Shown piece by piece: positions 1,609 through 14,827 of a DNA stretch of 14,827 nucleotides. Made by a program: the position numbers and the translations under genes. This stretch comes from a virus (taxonomy: Duplodnaviria > Heunggongvirae > Uroviricota > Caudoviricetes): the IMG/VR virus record IMGVR_UViG_2565956710_000002; one strand, 5' to 3'. Below the pieces are notes generated by a model that searched no databases, was not told where the DNA came from, and saw nothing but the letters and a program-made list of their open reading frames with translations. The first letter of the stretch is position 1. Each line of letters opens with the position of its first letter.

Positions 1609-2799
1609 ATGATGCTGAATGCCCGCAAGGTTGAAGCTGCGAAAGGAAAAGAGAAGAGCTACAAGCTGTTTGATGGAGGTGGCCTATACCTTCAGGTCGA
1701 ACCTAATGGCTCGCGTTACTGGCGTATGAAATACCGTTTTGCTGGTAAAGAGAAACGATTGTCCTTTGGTGTTTATCCAACAGTCACACTTGCTGATGCC
1801 AGACAAAAACGAGAAGACGCGAAGAAACTACTCGCAGCAGGTGAAGATCCCGGCGAAGTCAAAAAAGCCAAAAAGCAGGCTTTAAATGCAGCGAGTGAGA
1901 CACTTAACCCATTCAGAGAAGTGGCGTTAGAGTGGCACAAAATGAAATCACCCAAATGGTCTGAGGGCTATGCTTCCGACATCATTGAGGCATTCGAGAA
2001 AGACATTTTCCCGCATATTGGGCACAGACCTATAGCTGATATTCAGCCCCTTGAACTGCTTGAAGTTCTGAGGTTGATAGAAGCTCGAGGCGCTATGGAG
2101 AAAGCGAAGAAAGTCCGTCAGCGATGCGGTGAAGTTTTTCGCTATGCCATCGTAACGGGTAGGGCAATCTACAATCCGGCACCGGATCTTGCCAGTGTGA
2201 TGCAAGGACATGAAGCAGTCCACTATCCATTCCTCAAAGCCAACGAACTACCGGAGTTCTTTAATGCCCTTAATTCTTATTCAGGAAGTCCAATTGTATT
2301 GTTGGGGGCGCATTTACTTATCCTGACAGGTCTACGAACTGGAGAACTACGAGCAGGTGAGTGGCGAGAGGTGGATTTTGATAATGCGGTGTGGGAGATC
2401 CCAAAAGAACGTATGAAAATGCGTAGGAGCCATATTGTCCCGTTGTCAAAACAAGCATTATCCCATCTCAAAAGTTTGAAAGAACTAACTGGGAACTACC
2501 CGCTGATGTTCCCTGGACGCAACGATCCCAGCAAATTTATGAGTGAAGCAAGCATTAATCAGGTGTTTAAACGTATTGGATATGCAGGGCGTGTTACGGG
2601 GCATGGTTTCAGGCATACGATGAGTACAATCCTACATGAGAAAGGATTTAACAGCGCTTGGATTGAAACCCAGCTTGCTCATTCGGACAAAAACTCTATT
2701 CGTGGAATTTATAACCATGCCCAATATCTCGAAGGGAGAAGAGAAATGATGCAATGGTATGCTAATTATTTATCTGAGCAAATTGGTACTCATAAATGA
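1609..2799 (+). CDS. int: tyrosine recombinase, P4-type integrase
   Basis: The ORF track gives 1540-2799 from a TTG; I place the start at the ATG at 1609 (MMLNARKVEAAKGKEKSYKLFDGGGLYL...) because it aligns with the N-terminus of the second integrase at 14489 (MKLNARQIDTAKPKEKAYKLADGGGLYL). The C-terminal catalytic region has HxxR (GHGFRHT) and the family layout. Sits next to the tRNA att site. Confidence 0.9.
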   Translation: MMLNARKVEAAKGKEKSYKLFDGGGLYLQVEPNGSRYWRMKYRFAGKEKRLSFGVYPTVTLADARQKREDAKKLLAAGEDPGEVKKAKKQALNAASETLNPFREVALEWHKMKSPKWSEGYASDIIEAFEKDIFPHIGHRPIADIQPLELLEVLRLIEARGAMEKAKKVRQRCGEVFRYAIVTGRAIYNPAPDLASVMQGHEAVHYPFLKANELPEFFNALNSYSGSPIVLLGAHLLILTGLRTGELRAGEWREVDFDNAVWEIPKERMKMRRSHIVPLSKQALSHLKSLKELTGNYPLMFPGRNDPSKFMSEASINQVFKRIGYAGRVTGHGFRHTMSTILHEKGFNSAWIETQLAHSDKNSIRGIYNHAQYLEGRREMMQWYANYLSEQIGTHK

Positions 2800-3620
2800 A
2801 TATTTTAAAAATTAATAATACTGATTCTCTGCTCAGAGATTACTACCAGTTGGATGAAGCTTCAGAAAAAATTGGTTGTAGTGAAAAGGATATACTCTGG
2901 TTTGCCAGAGAACGAGATGTAGAGCTATGCATGGAATTCCATGATGATGAGTATGATGTTTCATGTGGTTTGAAGATTGATGGTCAAATGGATGAGTTCT
3001 TATCTAATCTGAAATATTTACCACGAGATAGAAATGGCAATATTATGTTGTCAGACTTAAGTTCTATAAGAATCCCTGATGAAGATAATTTAATTGATAA
3101 AAATGGTTTTATTCGATGCTTCATATCCGGTTTATGGGCTGTTGATTATGAATATAAAGATCTGTTAGTTAAGCATGAGGGGCAACCGGATTCCTGGCCT
3201 ATTCATTTTCTACTGGCGGGTACGCCTAATATAAATTGTAAGGTAATTCTTTATGTAAATTATGATGAAAAAGAAAATTATTATCTTTTTGAGGTTTTGT
3301 GGATTACAAAGGTACAGATTCAAAAATTCATTGATATAGTCTTATGCGAACAAAAGCGGATAAAAAACGCCAATAAATATAAATCACAATCTGAGGCGCA
3401 AAAACAAAAACATGCTGTTCCTCGAGCTGAAATACTCATGGCTATTATTTCGCTCTATCATCGTGATATGAGGCTAAGAAGAGAGAGTCCAGCAGCGATA
3501 GCTGATTATCTTTTTCAACATGCCAGTGAGTTCTGGCCTAAGACCGGAGAACCGCCTTTGAGCTATGATACTGTTGTTAGTTTGCTACGTAGTTGCATGA
3601 AAAACATTAAGTTTAACTAA
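2796..3620 (+). CDS. hypothetical protein (274 aa), AT-rich, translationally coupled to int
   Basis: ATG at 2796 overlaps the int stop (ATGA). Strongly AT-rich compared with int and alpha (judged by eye, not computed). No motif I recognise. Confidence 0.7.
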   Translation: MNILKINNTDSLLRDYYQLDEASEKIGCSEKDILWFARERDVELCMEFHDDEYDVSCGLKIDGQMDEFLSNLKYLPRDRNGNIMLSDLSSIRIPDEDNLIDKNGFIRCFISGLWAVDYEYKDLLVKHEGQPDSWPIHFLLAGTPNINCKVILYVNYDEKENYYLFEVLWITKVQIQKFIDIVLCEQKRIKNANKYKSQSEAQKQKHAVPRAEILMAIISLYHRDMRLRRESPAAIADYLFQHASEFWPKTGEPPLSYDTVVSLLRSCMKNIKFN

Positions 3621-3745
3621 ATATTAACAATTGTTGTGGCTAATGATTTTGAATTTTTTTCATTAGTCACATTTTTCTCATTTATAACCTATGTTTTAAT
3701 TTTCCGTGTTGAAGCCAATAGACTTAGATAAACGGAGAATGATGA

Positions 3746-4264: not shown

Positions 4265-4282
4265 GACTACATGGTAATTACC
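4239..4282. promoter_or_regulatory. tandem palindromic operators (2 x ACATGGTAATTACC, 30-bp period)
   Basis: Exact 14-mer at 4239-4252 and 4269-4282, each containing the perfect palindrome GGTAATTACC. Copy 1 overlaps the -35/spacer, copy 2 overlaps the predicted +1. Adjacent to the RHH gene. Confidence 0.5.
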
Positions 4283-4310
4283 ATTGTAAGTATAGTTCGC
4301 TTGTAAAAGC

Positions 4311-4345
4311 AATGCCCGATTGTGCGGGAACACAAATCGGGCATT
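4311..4345 (+). other. strong stem-loop in the early-operon leader
   Basis: AATGCCCGATTGTG (4311-4324) pairs with CACAAATCGGGCATT (4331-4345): 11 bp, a one-nt bulge, then 3 bp, with loop CGGGAA. No U-tract follows. Confidence 0.45.
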
Positions 4346-4373
4346 TAACCAACCGTTATAAGAGGTAACGAAG

Positions 4374-4550
4374 ATGGCTAAACAGAAGTGTACCTGGTTA
4401 TTTGCGGCGATCAACCGCAGTCAACGCAATGCCCGTCCTGTGATGTTAAGGATCACCGCAGATAACGAGCGGTCAGCGCGGCGCAGACTTGCCCCGGACT
4501 ATGTACTGAGCTTTGCCGGGCGCATTCCCTGCGGAGGTGAACATGCGTAA
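4374..4550 (+). CDS. small protein (58 aa), first gene of early operon; function unknown
   Basis: ATG at 4374 with AGAGG 8 nt upstream. Translation: MAKQKCTWLFAAINRSQRNARPVMLRITADNERSARRRLAPDYVLSFAGRIPCGGEHA. The stop overlaps the next gene's start region. Not in the ORF track (under 60 aa). Confidence 0.45.
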   Translation: MAKQKCTWLFAAINRSQRNARPVMLRITADNERSARRRLAPDYVLSFAGRIPCGGEHA

Positions 4551-5598: not shown

Positions 5599-8267
5599 CA
5601 ATACAGACGGTTACGCAGATTTCAGCCGCCGCACGGGGGAAATGGCCCGTTATTCTCCAGATGCTGCGTATTGATGTACCTGAAAACGGCAGGCACGGTC
5701 CCTGCCCGAAATGTGGGGGCAAGGATCGTTTTCGCCTTGATGACCTTGACGGGCGCGGGACGTGGATCTGCAGCCAGTGTGGCAATGGTGACGGTCTGGA
5801 TCTGGTTAAGCTCGTAACCGGTTACAGCGTCAGAAAGGCTGCGCAGGAGGTGGCGCAGGTGCTTAATGTGCCGGATGTGCAGGAACTGCCTGTTAAGCCT
5901 GCCAGACAAAAAGCCCCTAAACGCGACATGGGTCTTACCGTGGCGGCGCTGATGAAAGAGAGCCACACGGGAGAAAGCGCCTATCTGACAGGAAAAGGGT
6001 TCGCCGGATACCCGGCCTCTCTGACCGGAAGCGTGCAGCATATCAGCGGTAAGGATTTTCCTGCCGGTTCCCTGCTGTTACCACTCACGACCAACACCGG
6101 AGCCGTGACTGGTGCACAGCTTATCGCCCCGACGGGTGAAAAAAGCATACTGCCCGGCAGCACGATGAAAGGCGCGTTTGTGTCGCTCAGCCCGTTACCG
6201 TCTGAACCACCGGTACAGGTGGTGATTACCGAAGGTTACGCTACGGCGCTGACGGTAAGTCAGCTCACTGCCGGATGCGTAGTGGCTGCCATATCTGCGG
6301 GCAACCTGCCCAATGTGGCGCAGTCGCTGCGGGCACGCTGGCCTGAGGTAAAAATTATCATCGCCGGTGATAACGATTTTCAGGACGGAGGTGAGAATCC
6401 CGGCAGAGCCTTTGCTGAACGGGCGGCAAAAGCTGTTGGCGGCTGGATGACGCTGCCACCAGGAGAGATTAAGGCTGACTGGAATGACTTTCATCGGGAG
6501 CACGGTATTACCCGTGCCCGTGAAGCCTTTCGCAACGGTCTGGTACTGTGCGGGGAAGGCCGCACGCAACTGCCGCACGGGTTCCGTCTTACCCAGGAAT
6601 ATCTCTGGTATGAAAAGCAGGTACAGCGCAACGGTGAGACGGAGATCCAGAACGTCAAAATATGCAGCCCGCTGCGCGTGACGGCAATCACCTGCGATGC
6701 CGATGGCGGTAACTTCGGACGACTGCTGGAATGGGAAGATACGTGGGGTGAGTGTCGCCGCTGGGCGATGCCGATGGAAATGCTGAGCGGCAGTGGTGAG
6801 GAACTGCGCCGGGTACTGCTGGTTAACGGGCTGTCTTATATCAGCACCACCGGTGAGGCACGCGCACGCCTGATGGAATATATCTCACTGTGTAAACCGG
6901 AACGCCGCGTGACCTGCGTCAGTCGTACTGGCTGGCATGGTCAGGTTTACGTCCTGCAGGATGAGGTCAGCGGTGAAGGTGCAGAGGGTGTCATTCTCCA
7001 GACCACTTCCGTGCAGGGGCGTGATTTCCGCGTGTCGGGCACAACAGAGGAATGGCGGGAGCATGTATCCCGCTACTGTACCGGCAACTCCCGCGTGGCA
7101 TTTGCTGTCAGCCTGGCCTTTGCTGCACCACTGTTACGGCTGGTTGGTATGGACGGCGGCGGCTACCACCTCAAAGGGGAATCGACAGACGGTAAGACCA
7201 CCACCATGAAAGCGGCAACCTCCGTCTGCGGCGGGCCTGACTACTGGCAGACATGGCGGGCCACCGGCAACGCGCTGGAGGGATGCGCCAGCCGCCGCAA
7301 CGATGCCGCCATGATGCTTGATGAGATCCGGGAAGTTGACGGACGCGAGGCAGGCAATATCGCCTACATGCTGGCAAACGGTCAGGGCAAAGGCCGTGCC
7401 GGTACGGACGGTGAGCTGCGTACCCGTAAGCAGTGGCGCCTGTTGTTCTTTTCAACTGGCGAGTTGTCTCTGACCGAACATGCGGCAAAGGCCGGTGAGC
7501 GTACTTTTGCCGGGATGGAAGTCAGGATGATCCAGATCCCCAGCGATTCCGGGAAGTTTGGCGTTTTTGAGGAGCTGCACGGCTTCGACAGCGGCAAGGC
7601 TCTGGCAGAGCATCTTGAATGGGCCACGTCCTGCTACTACGGTTCGCCGTTCCGGGAGTGGCTGAAAGCACTGACCGCTGATCTTAACGGACTAACGGCA
7701 CAGGCAAAATCGCTGATGAAGGAATATGCTGCCGCCCTGACTCCGAAAGATGCAGGCAATCAGGTGGGCCGGGCTGTGAACCGCTTTGCTCTGGTGGCGA
7801 TGGCAGGTGAACTGGCAACCCGTCTGGGTATCACCGGCTGGCCTGAGGGTGAAGCACTGCGGGCAACCCGCGTCTGCCTGAACGCATGGCTGAAAGATCG
7901 CGGGCACACCGCCAATCAGGAAGATATCGCCGCACTGGAGCAGGTTCGCAGTTTCTTCACCGCGAATCAGTACAGCCGCTTTGCAGACTGGTATGACGAG
8001 CGCAACCGCCCCGGCAATATGGTGGGCTGGCGCAGGGTGGAGAAAGGCAGTACCGCGCAGGGCACGGAAGCTGTCACTACGTTCTATGTCATGCCGTCCG
8101 GCTGGAAAGAAATCTGCAGGGGATTTGACCCGCGCAAGGTGGCGCGTCTGTGCGCAGATCGTGGATACCTGCTGCCCTCCACTGATGGCAAACTCCAGAC
8201 AACCATTCGCCCGCCAGAGATGAATCCCCGCAGGCTCTATGTCTTCAACAGCGAGGTGCCGGGTTAA
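5595..8267 (+). CDS. P4 alpha-type primase-helicase (zinc-ribbon + TOPRIM primase + P-loop NTPase)
   Basis: 890 aa. N-terminal zinc ribbon CPKCGG...CSQCG; TOPRIM motifs ITEGYATAL and IIIAGDNDFQDGGENPG; Walker A GESTDGKTT. An iteron array follows immediately downstream. Confidence 0.9.
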   Translation: MTIQTVTQISAAARGKWPVILQMLRIDVPENGRHGPCPKCGGKDRFRLDDLDGRGTWICSQCGNGDGLDLVKLVTGYSVRKAAQEVAQVLNVPDVQELPVKPARQKAPKRDMGLTVAALMKESHTGESAYLTGKGFAGYPASLTGSVQHISGKDFPAGSLLLPLTTNTGAVTGAQLIAPTGEKSILPGSTMKGAFVSLSPLPSEPPVQVVITEGYATALTVSQLTAGCVVAAISAGNLPNVAQSLRARWPEVKIIIAGDNDFQDGGENPGRAFAERAAKAVGGWMTLPPGEIKADWNDFHREHGITRAREAFRNGLVLCGEGRTQLPHGFRLTQEYLWYEKQVQRNGETEIQNVKICSPLRVTAITCDADGGNFGRLLEWEDTWGECRRWAMPMEMLSGSGEELRRVLLVNGLSYISTTGEARARLMEYISLCKPERRVTCVSRTGWHGQVYVLQDEVSGEGAEGVILQTTSVQGRDFRVSGTTEEWREHVSRYCTGNSRVAFAVSLAFAAPLLRLVGMDGGGYHLKGESTDGKTTTMKAATSVCGGPDYWQTWRATGNALEGCASRRNDAAMMLDEIREVDGREAGNIAYMLANGQGKGRAGTDGELRTRKQWRLLFFSTGELSLTEHAAKAGERTFAGMEVRMIQIPSDSGKFGVFEELHGFDSGKALAEHLEWATSCYYGSPFREWLKALTADLNGLTAQAKSLMKEYAAALTPKDAGNQVGRAVNRFALVAMAGELATRLGITGWPEGEALRATRVCLNAWLKDRGHTANQEDIAALEQVRSFFTANQYSRFADWYDERNRPGNMVGWRRVEKGSTAQGTEAVTTFYVMPSGWKEICRGFDPRKVARLCADRGYLLPSTDGKLQTTIRPPEMNPRRLYVFNSEVPG

Positions 8268-10258: not shown

Positions 10259-10284
10259 ATCCCGGTCGAGTACCGGGATTTTTA
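10259..10284 (+). terminator. rho-independent terminator after the late operon
   Basis: 8-bp GC-rich stem ATCCCGGT/ACCGGGAT with loop CGAGT, followed by TTTTT. Confidence 0.6.
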
Positions 10285-10631
10285 ACACCTTTTCCCTGGC
10301 TGGCCTGAGAGCGTATGAGTGCATGTCTATGGCGCATGAAAATGCATGAGTCTTATGCACCCTTTTTGAGGCGAAAACCTTTGTGTGGTGGTATCTGAGA
10401 CGATTTATGGCATGCATGAAAACCAGTCTGTTAAGCGAAGCGGGCAGGCGTGCGGGGCTGCCCGCGTAAGGGCGTTGAATGGTATAACTATGGCACGGTT
10501 ACCGCATGTTTTGAGCTGTAATCGAAGTTATGAAAATTACTATATAAAGCGGTCGCTGTTGTGGAGATACGATTGCGGGAAGTGATGGAAAGAGCTATAA
10601 AAAGTACAGAGGATAGTTTAATGAGGGTATT

Positions 10632-11909
10632 ATGAACCGTCAGCCGTTTACTTCAGCAGCACTTAAACGAAACTTAAGTGAAAGTGAGAAGGCTTATTAT
10701 TTTAAAAAAAATAATGTTGCTGAGTTAGAATCATTAATTAGTGATGCCGTTTTAATTGCTAATGAGAATTTTCGCTCTGGTGTGAGTGTAAAGAAACTAA
10801 ATATTAAGGGACGCTGCGTTTACACTGCTTCATGTTTGAAGGAAAAAATAATACTTAGACATTGCAATGCAAATTTAAAATGCCTTGAATCGCTTCGTCC
10901 CAAACAACGAAATACAATAATTAGTGAGCTTAAAATTTATTTGGAAGAAGGTACTCCATTCAAAATATATCGTTTGGATATAAAGTCTTTCTTTGAATCA
11001 ATTGATTTACCGCAGCTTTTTCAGCTCTTACATAACGAAACACGACTGTCTAGACATACAAAAAATTTGCTAGAATGGTATCTTAAATCGTGTGAAAGGC
11101 TTCACTCTTCGAAAGGATTACCTAGAGGGTTAGAAATTAGTCCTATGTTATCAGAATTGTACTTGGCACAATTTGATAATAGTATTCATAGGCATCCAGA
11201 AGTATTTTATTATTCAAGATTTGTAGATGATATGGTAATCGTTTCAAGTGGTTGTGAATGTGAAGCGTCCTTTATGGAATTTATACAAGATGTATTACCA
11301 AAGGGATTGGCTTTAAATAAAAATAAATTAAAAATATCTCCATGCATACCAAAGAGAAGTAAGGGTTCAAATAAACAGGATAAATTGCTTCATGAATTTG
11401 ACTTTCTAGGGTACTCGTTTTCTATAATAGACACACCTTTGAGCAAAGATGGTGAGATTAATAGCTGTTACAGAAAGGTTGTTGTTAATTTATCTAAATC
11501 TCGCCTGAAGAAAATTAAAACAAGAATAGCTAGGTCTTTCTACTCTTATCATATTAATGGTGATTTTAAACTATTGCTAGACAGGATTTCTTTTTTGACT
11601 AGCAACAGGGATTTAAATCGCAAAATAAAATCGTTAAGTTCTTTAGAAAAAAGCAAGATAAGTACAGGTATTTATTACAGTAATGCGAAGTTAGATGTTG
11701 ACTCCATATCCCTAAAAAAATTAGATGACTTTTTGCTATATTGTGTGCAATCTAATACTGGGCGTTTGAATAGTGTTGCAAAAAAACCTTTTAATTTGAA
11801 GCAAAAAAAAGAACTGCTAAGAAATAGTTTTAGAAAAGGCTTTGTGGATAGAGTATATAGAAAGTATAACTTTAAGCGCTATACTGAGATTACAAAAATA
11901 TGGTTATAA
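10632..11909 (+). CDS. reverse transcriptase 1 (425 aa), first gene of dual-RT operon; UG3-like by architecture (unverified)
   Basis: RT motifs read from the translation: motif 2 YRLDIKSFFESID (D116), motif 4 GLPRGLEISPMLSELYLAQFD, motif 5 FVDD (D199-D200, nt 11226-11231), motif 7 FDFLGYSF, plus a ~170-aa C-terminal extension. Strongly AT-rich. Overlaps the next gene by 10 nt. Confidence 0.85.
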   Translation: MNRQPFTSAALKRNLSESEKAYYFKKNNVAELESLISDAVLIANENFRSGVSVKKLNIKGRCVYTASCLKEKIILRHCNANLKCLESLRPKQRNTIISELKIYLEEGTPFKIYRLDIKSFFESIDLPQLFQLLHNETRLSRHTKNLLEWYLKSCERLHSSKGLPRGLEISPMLSELYLAQFDNSIHRHPEVFYYSRFVDDMVIVSSGCECEASFMEFIQDVLPKGLALNKNKLKISPCIPKRSKGSNKQDKLLHEFDFLGYSFSIIDTPLSKDGEINSCYRKVVVNLSKSRLKKIKTRIARSFYSYHINGDFKLLLDRISFLTSNRDLNRKIKSLSSLEKSKISTGIYYSNAKLDVDSISLKKLDDFLLYCVQSNTGRLNSVAKKPFNLKQKKELLRNSFRKGFVDRVYRKYNFKRYTEITKIWL

Positions 11910-13918
11910 AGAAAAACATTAAACTTGATAAGAAAGATTATCTCAGGGCTTTACTATGTGATACACTGCCCGGTGATTGTCCAATTATTTTTTCAAATGA
12001 TGGCTTATATATAAACTTAACAGAATATGATAGAGTTTGTAATGATTTGTTACATTTTACTCCGGTTTCTTCTTTCTTAAAAAAAATAGTTAACCCTAAT
12101 TTAGACTCTTCTATTAGTGTCGCAGATCGCCACCGAGAAAAGAAGAAACAAAGCTCCCCATTTGGCTATTGTATAGTAAAAGATGCCTTTAGCCAAAGAC
12201 ATCTTTCTTTAATTCACCCAAGATCTCAAATTAATTATTCGGAATTTTATAAAACATACTCATCCGTTATCACATTAAATACTTTAAAAAGTAATTTTTC
12301 TATTCGCTACCCACGTAAGGTCGCTAACTCTTTCTTTTTATATGAAAATAATGCTTTGGAAAAATATAAAGGGGAAGATATCGAAACAACAAAGGATGAG
12401 TTAATGAGGAAATATTCATCCTCTTATTTTAGTTATGGCGGTTTCAACAGGATATATAAACTATTTCAAAGTAAGATGTTTATTGAGCTTGAGAAAAGAT
12501 TCTCGGTGATGTGGATGTTAGATGTATCACATTGTTTTGATAGCATATATACGCATTCGGTTTCTTGGGCATTAAAAAATAAATCATATATCAAAAAACA
12601 TGTTAAACACAGCAATCAATTTGGACAAGAATTAGATACACTGATGCAACGTAGCAATAATAATGAAACAAATGGAATACCTATTGGTTCAGAGTTTAGC
12701 AGGGTTTTTGCAGAATTAATATTTCAGCGAATTGATTGCAATATTGAGTCATGCCTTCTTAGTGAACATGGATGGGTTAATAATAAAGATTATGTTATAT
12801 TGAGATATGTAGATGATTTTATTGTTTTTTGTAATGGTGAGTCAAGTGCCGAAGTTATTACAAAAATAATTAATGTGAAGTTAAATGAATATAATCTACA
12901 ATTAAATGTAAACAAGCTTAAGAAGTATTCTAGGCCATTTTGCACTAGCAAGACAAGTTTGATTGTCAAAGTTAATGAATTAATTCGCAATTTAGAAATT
13001 AAACTGTATGAAAAACGTGATAGTGGCTTTACTTTAAATAAAATAAGAAGTAAGCATGATTTAAAGATATATGTAATTAATCATGTCAAGTCTATATGCA
13101 TTGAAAATCAAGTGTCTTATTCTGATGTTTCATCATATATAATATCATCTCTTTCCAAAAGATTAATATCAATAATTGATATATTACGAGTTCAAGAAAA
13201 TGAAGATGATGTAGATGTAAAAAAAAGGATTAAGGACTTAATTTTCACAATAACCGATATTATGTTGTTCTTTTTCAGTGTTAACCCAACTGTTTCATCA
13301 TCTTATAAATTATCAAAGACAATGGTTGTTGTTAATAACTATTTGAATGAAATATCTAGTGACTATAGTAGTATTTTTATGACTACGTTAGTGAATACTG
13401 CGGAAAACATTAATTTTGGTGAGAATGATAATGGGCTGTTTATTGATGATTTCATTTCAATTGAAAAGGTTAATTTAATCTTGGCTGCTACTTTTTTTGG
13501 AGATAATTATCTTATAAGTGACAGTTTTTTTCATGGAGTTATACATAAAAAGAAATTGGACTACTTTACTATAATCTCACTGCTATTCTATTTTAGAAAC
13601 AGAAGATCATTCCGAAAATTGAAGTGTATAATAGAGGGTGAAATAAAGGAAATATTAAGTTCTAATATGGATTTGCTGCAATCATCGGAAAAGGCACATT
13701 TATTTTTGGATGTCATGTCATGTCCATTTGTCTCAATAGAGACAAGGCGTTTTTTATATAGAAAATATCTCAAGAGCTATGAGCCAAAGCTGAACAGAAG
13801 TCATCTGGAGATTGAGAATGATTTGCAATCTCTGCTTCAAACATATTGGTTTGTCAAGTGGGATGAGTTAGATATTGTGAAAATGATTGAGAAAAAAGAA
13901 TTGAAAGAAAGCTATTAA
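11900..13918 (+). CDS. reverse transcriptase 2 (672 aa), second gene of dual-RT operon; UG8-like by architecture (unverified)
   Basis: Motif 2 WMLDVSHCFDSIY (D208), motif 4 GIPIGSEFSRVFAELIFQRID, motif 5 YVDD (D305-D306, nt 12812-12817). About 200 aa N-terminal and 350 aa C-terminal extensions with no recognisable nuclease domain. ATG at 11900 overlaps the upstream stop at 11907-11909. Confidence 0.85.
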   Translation: MVIKKNIKLDKKDYLRALLCDTLPGDCPIIFSNDGLYINLTEYDRVCNDLLHFTPVSSFLKKIVNPNLDSSISVADRHREKKKQSSPFGYCIVKDAFSQRHLSLIHPRSQINYSEFYKTYSSVITLNTLKSNFSIRYPRKVANSFFLYENNALEKYKGEDIETTKDELMRKYSSSYFSYGGFNRIYKLFQSKMFIELEKRFSVMWMLDVSHCFDSIYTHSVSWALKNKSYIKKHVKHSNQFGQELDTLMQRSNNNETNGIPIGSEFSRVFAELIFQRIDCNIESCLLSEHGWVNNKDYVILRYVDDFIVFCNGESSAEVITKIINVKLNEYNLQLNVNKLKKYSRPFCTSKTSLIVKVNELIRNLEIKLYEKRDSGFTLNKIRSKHDLKIYVINHVKSICIENQVSYSDVSSYIISSLSKRLISIIDILRVQENEDDVDVKKRIKDLIFTITDIMLFFFSVNPTVSSSYKLSKTMVVVNNYLNEISSDYSSIFMTTLVNTAENINFGENDNGLFIDDFISIEKVNLILAATFFGDNYLISDSFFHGVIHKKKLDYFTIISLLFYFRNRRSFRKLKCIIEGEIKEILSSNMDLLQSSEKAHLFLDVMSCPFVSIETRRFLYRKYLKSYEPKLNRSHLEIENDLQSLLQTYWFVKWDELDIVKMIEKKELKESY

Positions 13919-14059
13919 TTTGATAAATATGAGTCGTGGTCAGTTTCAAAATACTTACGTCATCGTCGTCGGTGTATTTTATATCGATTATGAAGACGAT
14001 TTCGCTGGAACTGAAATCGGCTTGAATGCTTAAACTTAAGCTAAAAAAACAGTTTGAGA

Positions 14060-14090
14060 CCAAAGCCTAAATTATTAGGCTTTGGATTTT
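14060..14090 (+). terminator. stem-loop with short T-run downstream of the RT operon (terminator or structured RNA element)
   Basis: CCAAAGCCTAA (14060-14070) pairs perfectly with TTAGGCTTTGG (14075-14085), loop ATTA, followed by ATTTT. Confidence 0.5.
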
Positions 14091-14310
14091 CAGGTTCAGT
14101 TGAGAGTAATTGCTGTCTGTTTATTGCTTAACCAATACAGTTAGTGGTGCTTACACACCTGATGTTGAGAAACTGACCACACCAATACAACCTTTTGTTT
14201 GTCTTCAACTGTGTAGACTACTAAACACGAATCAGCAGTTAGGGGCATGTATGGGGGCATTGGTTTTAATTTTTTATAAAATATCAATTTTTTCATATTG
14301 TTAAGTTATT

Positions 14311-14335
14311 GTTCGACTCCTATTATCGGCACCAT
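14311..14335. repeat. att core direct repeat, copy 2 (junction between the two tandem elements)
   Basis: Exact 25-bp copy of the tRNA 3' end (1421-1445), followed by arm motifs similar to those after copy 1. Confidence 0.8.
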
Positions 14336-14488: not shown

Positions 14489-14827
14489 GTGAAACTCAAT
14501 GCCCGTCAAATAGACACTGCCAAGCCAAAAGAGAAGGCTTACAAGTTGGCTGATGGTGGTGGTCTGTACCTCCTGGTAAAACCTGGTGGAGGAGAATATT
14601 GGCGTCTCAAGTATCGTGTAGCTGGTAAAGAGAAGCTGTTAGCACTAGGTGTGTATCCTGAGGTCACCTTAGCTGATGCTCCTGCAAAACTTGAAGAAGC
14701 TAAAAGAGGTATCTCTGGGGGAATCGATCTGATGGAAGTGAAGCGAGAGGAAAAGATTGCCCGGGAAACGCAGTTAAACAACACCTTCAAAGATATTGCC
14801 CTTGAGTGGCACAGTAACAAATTATAA
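14489..14827 (+). CDS. second P4-type integrase, N-terminal 112 codons ending at an in-frame TAA (likely truncated or disrupted)
   Basis: GTG start. MKLNARQIDTAKPKEKAYKLADGGGLYLLVKPGGGEYWRLKYRVAGKEK aligns with the first integrase N-terminus. Reading frame ends EWHSNKL-TAA at 14825-14827, where the first integrase continues for ~290 more residues. Confidence 0.7.
   Translation: MKLNARQIDTAKPKEKAYKLADGGGLYLLVKPGGGEYWRLKYRVAGKEKLLALGVYPEVTLADAPAKLEEAKRGISGGIDLMEVKREEKIARETQLNNTFKDIALEWHSNKL

Follow-up and report, generated by a model that had tools for sequence, protein, structure and literature searches.

The type 3 family of defence-associated reverse transcriptases (DRT3) was reportedly defined in 2020, and EcoDRT3, its Escherichia coli representative, is also said to come from Gao et al. 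2020. The present text concerns a DRT3 locus in a 14,827-nt stretch of DNA (hereafter, at its full length, the window) from the Caudoviricetes record IMGVR_UViG_2565956710_000002, in which two overlapping reverse transcriptase (RT) genes, encoding RT1 and RT2, are carried by a P4-like satellite. In the E. coli ECOR12 system, i.e., EcoDRT3 (Wang, Yoneyama et al. 2026, PMC13174585; PDB 26CZ), an RNA-templated poly(GT) strand and a protein-templated poly(AC) strand together yield double-stranded DNA, and the two RTs are specialised accordingly: DRT3a is RNA-templated, and DRT3b is protein-templated (PMC13174585). A cis-encoded non-coding RNA (ncRNA) located 3' of drt3b is required, and within it the motif ACACAC templates poly(dT-dG) (PMC13174585); mutations in this template abolish EcoDRT3 defence. 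Earlier, Mestre et al. 2022 (PMC9226505) had described an exposed 'CACACA'-like motif, and the same work reported the presence of UG3+UG8 pairs in the variable regions of P2/P4 elements.

With a probability of roughly 0.93, drt3a and drt3b of the window, together with a cis-encoded ncRNA, form an intact three-part DRT type 3 system, which is carried as cargo in the post-delta slot of a P4-like satellite at thrW and works by an EcoDRT3-like mechanism. Directly observed are membership in the family, the intact residues for catalysis, priming, and gating, and an ncRNA whose architecture includes the template. The finding as such is already known: the family, the ncRNA motif, the P2/P4 location, the structure and mechanism, and the RefSeq annotation of the locus have all been described. 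Thus, the locus has little discovery value, being an ordinary copy of a named and mechanistically described defence system. The original prediction, which was made from the sequence alone, had called the mechanism of two-RT systems poorly characterised; this is outdated, as both mechanism and structure were published in 2026.

Identity of the two reverse transcriptases

The cargo genes and the segment preceding them are as follows.

10477 to 10631, plus strand: cargo-specific leader 5' of drt3a, marked by a drop in GC content
10632 to 11909, plus strand: drt3a (UG3, class 2 UG reverse transcriptase), 425 aa, ATG start; supported by NCBIfam, PADLOC, and PDB 9z6y_A
10977 to 10979, plus strand: catalytic D116 of drt3a
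11220 to 11231, plus strand: FVDD box of drt3a, residues 197-200
11900 to 13918, plus strand: drt3b (UG8, class 1 UG reverse transcriptase with an alpha-repeat domain), 672 aa, ATG start

The open reading frame (ORF) listing of the window and the translations bear out the gene pair as originally read, i.e., two RT ORFs on the same strand that overlap by 10 nt (11900-11909), with RLDIKSFFESI, GLPRGLEISPMLSELYL, FVDD, and FLGY in RT1 and MLDVSHCFDSI, GIPIGSEFSRVFAELIF, and YVDD (residues 303-306) in RT2. The nucleotides proposed for D-to-A substitution were also placed correctly, since 11226-11231 encode D199/D200 of RT1 and 12812-12817 encode D305/D306 of RT2. The 10-nt overlap recurs in related loci (L082, L084, L085, L086, and L089), and it measures 4 nt in another relative (L088). 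The pair is indeed far richer in AT than the satellite genes, with a GC content of 0.26-0.34 over 10500-14000 vs. 0.49-0.62 (49-62%) in the satellite backbone. Only four other ORFs of at least 60 aa are found in the cargo; they are 61-69 aa long, and each overlaps drt3b or the ncRNA.

Both proteins match the Pfam RVT_1 family (1.3e-16 in RT1 and 2.2e-14 in RT2), and a profile search against defence-RT families, the check that had been suggested for them, returned Drt3a and Drt3b as by far the best matches. In PADLOC, RT1 matches Drt3a at 2.1e-131, the next family being RT_UG17 at 8.3e-30, and RT2 matches Drt3b at 7.7e-204, followed by Drt6 at 1e-40. The curated NCBIfam equivalog models give the same answer: RT1 scores 363.1 bits with NF041747 (Drt3a, cut-off 200), residues 1-424 lying on positions 1-412 of a 412-position profile, and RT2 scores 614.7 bits across the full profile of NF041748 (Drt3b, cut-off 350). 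Among solved structures, RT1 matches PDB 9z6y_A, entitled 'Drt3a', over its full length (E=2.5e-56, 35% identity), and RT2 matches 9z6y_H over residues 3-672 (E=3.6e-113, 36% identity); RT2 also matches EcoDRT3b (26cz). Since both matches to solved DRT3 chains are full length, they settle the folds of the two proteins. Membership in DRT type 3 is given by Drt3a and Drt3b scores above the cut-offs, the same-strand drt3a-drt3b order, intact catalytic Asp residues, the downstream ncRNA, and the C-terminal priming Tyr and nucleotide-gating residues of DRT3b. RefSeq already labels the genes of a 99.9%-identical locus drt3a and drt3b, and NCBI holds a DRT3b protein identical to RT2. Hence, the proposal of a DRT3-type dual-RT defence system stands as far as UG3+UG8 membership is concerned, which rests on curated cut-offs, whereas the wording 'candidate' or 'divergent relative' does not apply to a locus that RefSeq names outright. 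At the DNA level, the 4.1-kb locus is 99.8-99.9% identical in 15 of the complete E. coli genomes listed, whose sources are unrelated, and at least 80% of it is present in 22 of 5426 genomes.

It could be argued that both RTs derive from mobile or other retroelements, such as a group II intron RT/maturase or a retron RT, and not from a DRT. Weak matches do arise through the shared RT palm (71.8 and 43.3 bits with the group II intron model TIGR04416, and 50.9 bits with the retron St85 RT), and a retron is present in the same slot of sister satellites. However, these scores lie far under the respective cut-offs of 300 and 235 bits, and the Drt2 and Drt4 models of NCBIfam also remain far below theirs, whereas Drt3a and Drt3b exceed their own. 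Neither a group II intron nor a retron RNA is found in the window by Rfam at E<=1, and the Pfam search detects no maturase or endonuclease domain in either RT, as had been stated at the outset. Moreover, the RNA downstream has the architecture of DRT3. Given the profile scores and the missing counterpart RNAs, a retron or group II intron origin can, on sequence grounds, be regarded as excluded, with next to no probability left for it.

The downstream non-coding RNA

The RNA encoded 3' of drt3b comprises the following elements.

13936 to 14180, plus strand: minimal DRT3 ncRNA, reaching from one strand of helix P1 to the other, as defined by alignment, covariation, and fold
13936 to 13947, plus strand: P1 5' strand GTGGTCAGTTTC, which pairs with 14169-14180
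14099 to 14106, plus strand: conserved GTTGAGAG box, which opens the stem-loop immediately 5' of the template
14153 to 14158, plus strand: ACACAC, predicted template for poly(dT-dG) synthesis by DRT3a
14159 to 14180, plus strand: conserved CTGATGTTGA linker, followed by the P1 3' strand GAAACTGACCAC (14169-14180)

Conservation of the template was assessed in 71 loci gathered with the DRT3b alignment. ACACAC lies on the coding strand within 300 nt 3' of drt3b in 69 of them, compared with 4/71 for the opposite strand and 4/71 for the inside of the gene. In seven relatives with 51-80% DRT3b identity, the conserved element begins 17 nt past the drt3b stop codon and ends 22 nt past the template. 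When the regions 3' of drt3b from these relatives and the window are aligned (alignment A2, eight sequences), the GTTGAGAG box is invariant, and it recurs in the majority of distant loci. RNAalifold, applied to the relatives' alignment, predicts 35 pairs, 14 of which show compensatory changes; within this small set, such changes affect five of the 12 pairs of P1.

P1 is also recognisable in more distant loci by its position. In 50 of 68, the best helix falls in the same range, with its 5' strand 5-25 nt past the stop codon (mostly 16-18) and its 3' strand 8-21 nt past the start of ACACAC (mostly 16), and the helix sequences are unrelated to one another. In a MAFFT alignment from which the window was excluded (A3), 81% of the P1 cells are paired vs. 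58% in shuffled alignments (0/500 reach 81%) and 39-49% in controls with slid partners; double changes occur in 13 of 14 pairs. It should be noted that the 5' strand is misplaced in three sequences of A3 (L004, L088, and L089), which inflates the counts of 'broken' pairs. The 253-nt stretch 13934-14186 has a minimum free energy of -88.3 kcal/mol (z=-7.9 vs. shuffles). The experimentally defined 161-nt EcoDRT3 ncRNA folds to the same topology as the window ncRNA, that is, a closing helix around internal stem-loops, with ACACAC exposed in a single-stranded joint that immediately precedes the helix's second strand. Rfam 15, searched at E<=1, assigns no family to the ncRNA; its only matches in the window are the tRNA and two sub-threshold hits at chance level.

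These results move the boundary of the system, which is the useful point of the present analysis: the functional unit reaches ~14180 and not 13918. The originally assigned extent of 10632-13918 covers both genes and omits the ncRNA at 13936-14180, an essential part of the system. Likewise, the fragment proposed for cloning (10285-14100) would lose both ACACAC (14153-14158) and the P1 3' strand, and a clone that ends at 14100, and thus lacks the RNA template, would be expected to be inactive.

Two further observations concern the 3' end of this region. An ORF of 64 aa with a TTG start (14110-14304) was considered as a coding sequence and rejected, since it overlaps the ncRNA, whose conservation takes the form of compensatory pairing and of indels that differ in length. 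L082, an E. coli relative with 80% identity, has a tandem repeat of CCCATGCTT (approx. five copies, ~4265-4310) directly 3' of the closing helix of the ncRNA; the window sequence at this position is unrelated. To judge from this repeat, the ncRNA may end near P1.

Functional residues and proposed mechanism

Residues of the window DRT3b were mapped through alignment with EcoDRT3b (26cz) and the residues named in PMC13174585. The correspondence is as follows (all on the plus strand).

EcoDRT3b E22: window D26, nt 11975-11977
EcoDRT3b R71: window R100, nt 12197-12199
EcoDRT3b D182: window D208, nt 12521-12523
EcoDRT3b F187: window F213
EcoDRT3b R241: window R268, nt 12701-12703
EcoDRT3b Y276-D279: window Y303-D306 (YVDD), nt 12806-12817
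EcoDRT3b Y666: window Y672, the C-terminal residue, nt 13913-13915

D26, R100, D208, F213, R268, the YVDD box, and Y672 are invariant in an alignment of 31 sequences with 40-90% identity, and a Tyr is found within the last four residues in nearly all related loci that have a complete drt3b ORF. In DRT3a, D116, D199, and D200 are invariant among 74 homologs. The first residue of the DRT3a catalytic box is Tyr in 39 of these homologs and Phe in 35; because the family is split in this way, FVDD in RT1 is a normal family state and not a signal of specialisation, as the original prediction had suggested.

A mechanism for the window locus can be outlined by analogy with the published work (PMC13174585, and Deng et al. 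2026 to the extent that it is summarised in PMC13314766). DRT3a would bind the ncRNA and copy ACACAC repeatedly, in a telomerase-like manner, to produce poly(dT-dG). DRT3b, which would need no nucleic-acid template, would prime synthesis on its own C-terminal tyrosine (here Y672), and the acidic gate D26 together with the arginine switch R268 would enforce alternation of dA and dC to give poly(dC-dA). Inside a complex of DRT3a, DRT3b, and the ncRNA, the two strands would then pair to give poly(GT/AC) duplex DNA. RecBCD would normally hold the level of this DNA low, and its inhibition by a phage protein such as lambda Gam would allow the DNA to accumulate and lead to abortive infection. At least two triggers of DRT3 have been reported, namely lambda Gam and T1 ST61. 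By homology, the DNA products, a 6:6:6 complex, the trigger, and the defence phenotype of the window locus would be expected to correspond to those of the described systems.

Divergence of the locus

Several observations weigh against so straightforward an assignment. Identity to the experimentally studied DRT3 systems is only 32-36%, so that the mechanism, along with expression and phage defence, is inferred for the window locus. The dATP gate of DRT3b is Asp26 rather than Glu, and EcoDRT3b E22D is only partially active. The ncRNA is much longer than that of EcoDRT3: measured from one outer end of P1 to the other, it has 245 nt vs. ~130 nt. When 19 ncRNAs from loci other than the window were made into a covariance model (R1) whose sole structure was P1, the model recovered just a 20-nt template core and not the full-length RNA: its best match in the whole window is 14149-14168 (17.6 bits, E ~0.02). 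This is likely because the model carries little information (0.5 bit per position) and because extra hairpins add 70-100 nt to the window RNA. Hairpins specific to this lineage lie at ~13958-13995, ~14060-14085, and ~14107-14148. Furthermore, a consensus scan of the plus strand of the leader (10477-10631) gave no sigma-70 matches, and the promoter/terminator scan of the window returned no more sites than shuffled sequence, with nothing usable 5' of drt3a or 3' of the ncRNA.

Taken at face value, such features might indicate a decayed or inactive DRT3 remnant, in which the genes look intact and defence has been lost, for instance because the ncRNA is long and diverged, the gate is Asp, or a promoter is missing. 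The partial activity of EcoDRT3b E22D, the hairpins that extend the ncRNA by ~70-100 nt beyond most homologs, and the scan in which neither a promoter nor a terminator was recognised would be in line with decay. However, both ORFs are full length with respect to the profiles and retain all catalytic, priming, and gating residues, and the gate Asp is invariant in a clade of 31 homologs from many genera, which points to purifying selection. The extra hairpins are common to the E. coli and Yersinia relatives (78-80% protein identity), compensatory changes preserve P1, and the near-identity of the locus among the 15 listed E. coli genomes from unrelated sources does not fit with decay. Since the residues are intact, conservation is clade-wide, and the RNA covaries, an inactive remnant is unlikely, and the chance that we would assign to it is very small.

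It is also conceivable that the locus is a true DRT3 homolog from a lineage whose product or trigger differs from that of EcoDRT3. The distance from the characterised systems, Asp instead of Glu at the dATP gate, the longer ncRNA, a template-to-P1 linker of 10 nt (~4-5 nt in EcoDRT3), and the existence of more than one reported trigger within DRT3 are all compatible with this view. On the other hand, the template is the same ACACAC that is kept in nearly all of the loci; no difference is seen at R268, R100, YVDD, or the priming Tyr; and EcoDRT3b E22D still produces poly(dCdA), albeit at a reduced level, while E-to-D replacement at the gate is a natural variant in a substantial fraction of homologs (PMC13174585). 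Thus, a lineage-specific difference in product or trigger has little support, and we regard it as improbable. A broader and still doubtful suggestion is that this lineage, with its low identity, invariant gate Asp, approximately twofold longer ncRNA core, extra hairpins, and longer linker, may differ in regulation, product length, or trigger and, being satellite-borne, may be tuned to conflicts between satellites and helper phages. An intact DRT3 system that acts in the manner of EcoDRT3 remains the preferred reading.

The satellite and its variable slot

The boundaries of the element are given by a tRNA gene and two att repeats.

1369 to 1444: tRNA-Thr(CGT) gene, thrW
1421 to 1444: proximal att repeat, 24 nt, formed by the 3' end of tRNA-Thr
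14311 to 14334, plus strand: distal att repeat, an exact 24-nt copy of the tRNA-Thr 3' end, which bounds the satellite and the cargo slot

The 24-nt att sequence has two exact matches in the window, and none would be expected by chance. The 5' end of the window carries a gene of the aldehyde-dehydrogenase family that corresponds to proA, as follows from the order of proA, tRNA-Thr, and integrase in O157:H7. The satellite is recognised by its integrase, AlpA-like regulator, Icd-like gene, TOPRIM/DUF927 alpha-type primase, two Psu-like genes (the upstream one probably being Sid), and Ogr/Delta zinc-finger gene. The backbone genes and the att repeats place the RT pair between delta and the distal att of a P4-like satellite, as predicted.

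The backbone 3' of delta is common to 843 complete E. coli genomes, though only up to ~10460-10476, and in sister satellites that share sid, psu, and delta, the position after delta is occupied by a retron St85, by an ABC-three-component system, or by a lone hypothetical gene. Because cargo differs among sister elements with the same backbone, the post-delta position is a real variable slot, as in the P4-like satellites of Rousset et al. 2022 (PMC9122126), and the hotspot originally invoked for the psu/delta interval is borne out. A P4-like satellite hotspot is thus represented by both of its components, i.e., the backbone (int, alpha primase, sid/psu, and delta) and differing cargo at the same position. 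For the region between delta and drt3a, blastn returned no matches in the phage collection. Directly 3' of delta (10260-10283, plus strand), a GC-rich 7-bp hairpin, TCCCGGT/ACCGGGA, is followed by TTTTT; although it does not appear in the list of the consensus scan, it looks like an intrinsic terminator, and if it acts as such, drt3 would require its own promoter.

All satellite genes in the window run in one direction, and att sits between the cargo and int. In E. coli O157:H7 493/89 (L092), a satellite at the same thrW site has its sid-psu-delta-cargo block inverted relative to int; this order is P4-like, with the cargo adjoining int, unlike that of the window element. It appears, therefore, that two architectures of P4-like satellites occur at a single tRNA site. 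A second integrase gene, of the P4 type, starts at 14489 (plus strand), and its N-terminal part extends to the window end at 14827; as it follows right after the distal att, two islands lie in tandem at thrW. Strain H22 has a truncated pseudogene in place of the second integrase, and the vat autotransporter island comes next.

The P2/P4 cos consensus has no match in the window at up to three mismatches, the best being 13/19, i.e., at chance level; in the window and the E. coli sister elements together, the best match anywhere is 13-14/19. Just 5' of drt3a in two DRT3-carrying satellites from other genera, GGCGAGGCGGGGATAGCAT (L088 646-664 and L089 652-670) agrees with the P2/P4 cohesive-end sequence at 17 of 19 positions. 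A leader segment of the window (~10548-10582) aligns with this cos-like site and is diverged. As far as the sequence allows one to judge, the window lineage may either use a different cos or have lost it.

A few other sites of the satellite deserve mention. At 2796-3620 (plus strand), an ORF of 274 aa with a GC content of ~33% has an ATG that overlaps the stop codon of the integrase (ATGA). It has no PHROG, PADLOC, or significant Pfam matches and is labelled 'hypothetical protein' in RefSeq; it may be another cargo gene, located at the int-proximal end of the satellite. Directly 3' of it (3633-3673) is a long, perfect-looking hairpin of ~14 bp (GUUGUGGCUAAUGA...UCAUUAGUCACAUU), which came up as a spurious match of the covariance model with P1 as its only structure and probably acts as a terminator. 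Between the AlpA-like and Icd-like genes, 4308-4379 (minus strand) gives a sub-threshold Rfam match to SymR (31.6 bits vs. a gathering threshold of 61, E=0.011), and strain H22 has a small minus-strand coding sequence slightly nearer to the AlpA-like gene; the site is probably a satellite immunity or antisense region rather than SymR. Finally, a 30-nt direct repeat with 73% identity and the core CTGGCTGGCCTGAG is found inside the primase gene (7831-7860) and in the conserved region after delta (10293-10322), which may be due to chance or may represent a site related to replication or packaging.

Comparison with known systems

In P4-like hotspots (PMC9122126, PMC9226505), cargo lies after psu/delta and before the att/int junction. 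The window element shares this position, but its att lies between the cargo and int, so that the integrated cargo is at the end far from int.

RT2 shares with AbiK, DRT4 (UG15), and DRT6, which are single class 1 UG RTs, the build of an RT with alpha-repeats and the logic of protein priming, and it has weaker matches to Drt4, Drt6, AbiK, and AbiP2 as well as to PDB 7r08, 21ou, and 7z0z. However, those enzymes make random or other single-stranded DNA independently of a template and have no second RT or ncRNA. RT2 is paired with Drt3a and an ncRNA, and it scores 112 bits with the Drt4 equivalog (cut-off 450), which places it outside the DRT4/AbiK type.

DRT10/UG17, which consists of a class 2 UG RT, an ncRNA, and SLATT, is similar in that RT_UG17 is the second PADLOC family of RT1 and that a short ncRNA template is copied to tandem repeats in a telomerase-like manner. 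The match is approx. 100 orders of magnitude worse than that to Drt3a, and the partner in the window is a second RT. The few small overlapping ORFs in the cargo leave no space for a SLATT effector gene.

Among solved structures, the one that both proteins match best along their entire length is the DRT3 6:6:6 ribonucleoprotein 9z6y/9z6z, which is probably the complex of Deng et al. 2026 described in PMC13314766. Its proteins have 426 and 650 aa, compared with 425 and 672 aa in the window, and are 35-36% identical to them; the window DRT3b has an insertion of ~16 residues at 48-75, whereas in 9z6y the gate residue is Glu and the Drt3a box reads YVDD.

Compared with EcoDRT3, the window DRT3a is 32% identical, has 425 instead of 398 aa, and carries FVDD instead of YVDD. 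The window DRT3b has 672 aa vs. 667, Asp26 in place of Glu22, and its Tyr as the very last rather than the penultimate residue, and the ncRNA has a core approximately twice as long, with no terminator hairpin after P1. Its Asp gate, FVDD box, and long ncRNA make the locus a naturally occurring divergent variant, which could be used to gauge the tolerance of the DRT3 design. Both systems nonetheless share the drt3a-drt3b-ncRNA order on one strand, ACACAC in the single-stranded joint just 5' of the P1 3' strand, and, in DRT3b, YVDD, the gates equivalent to R71 and R241, and a priming Tyr as the last or penultimate residue.

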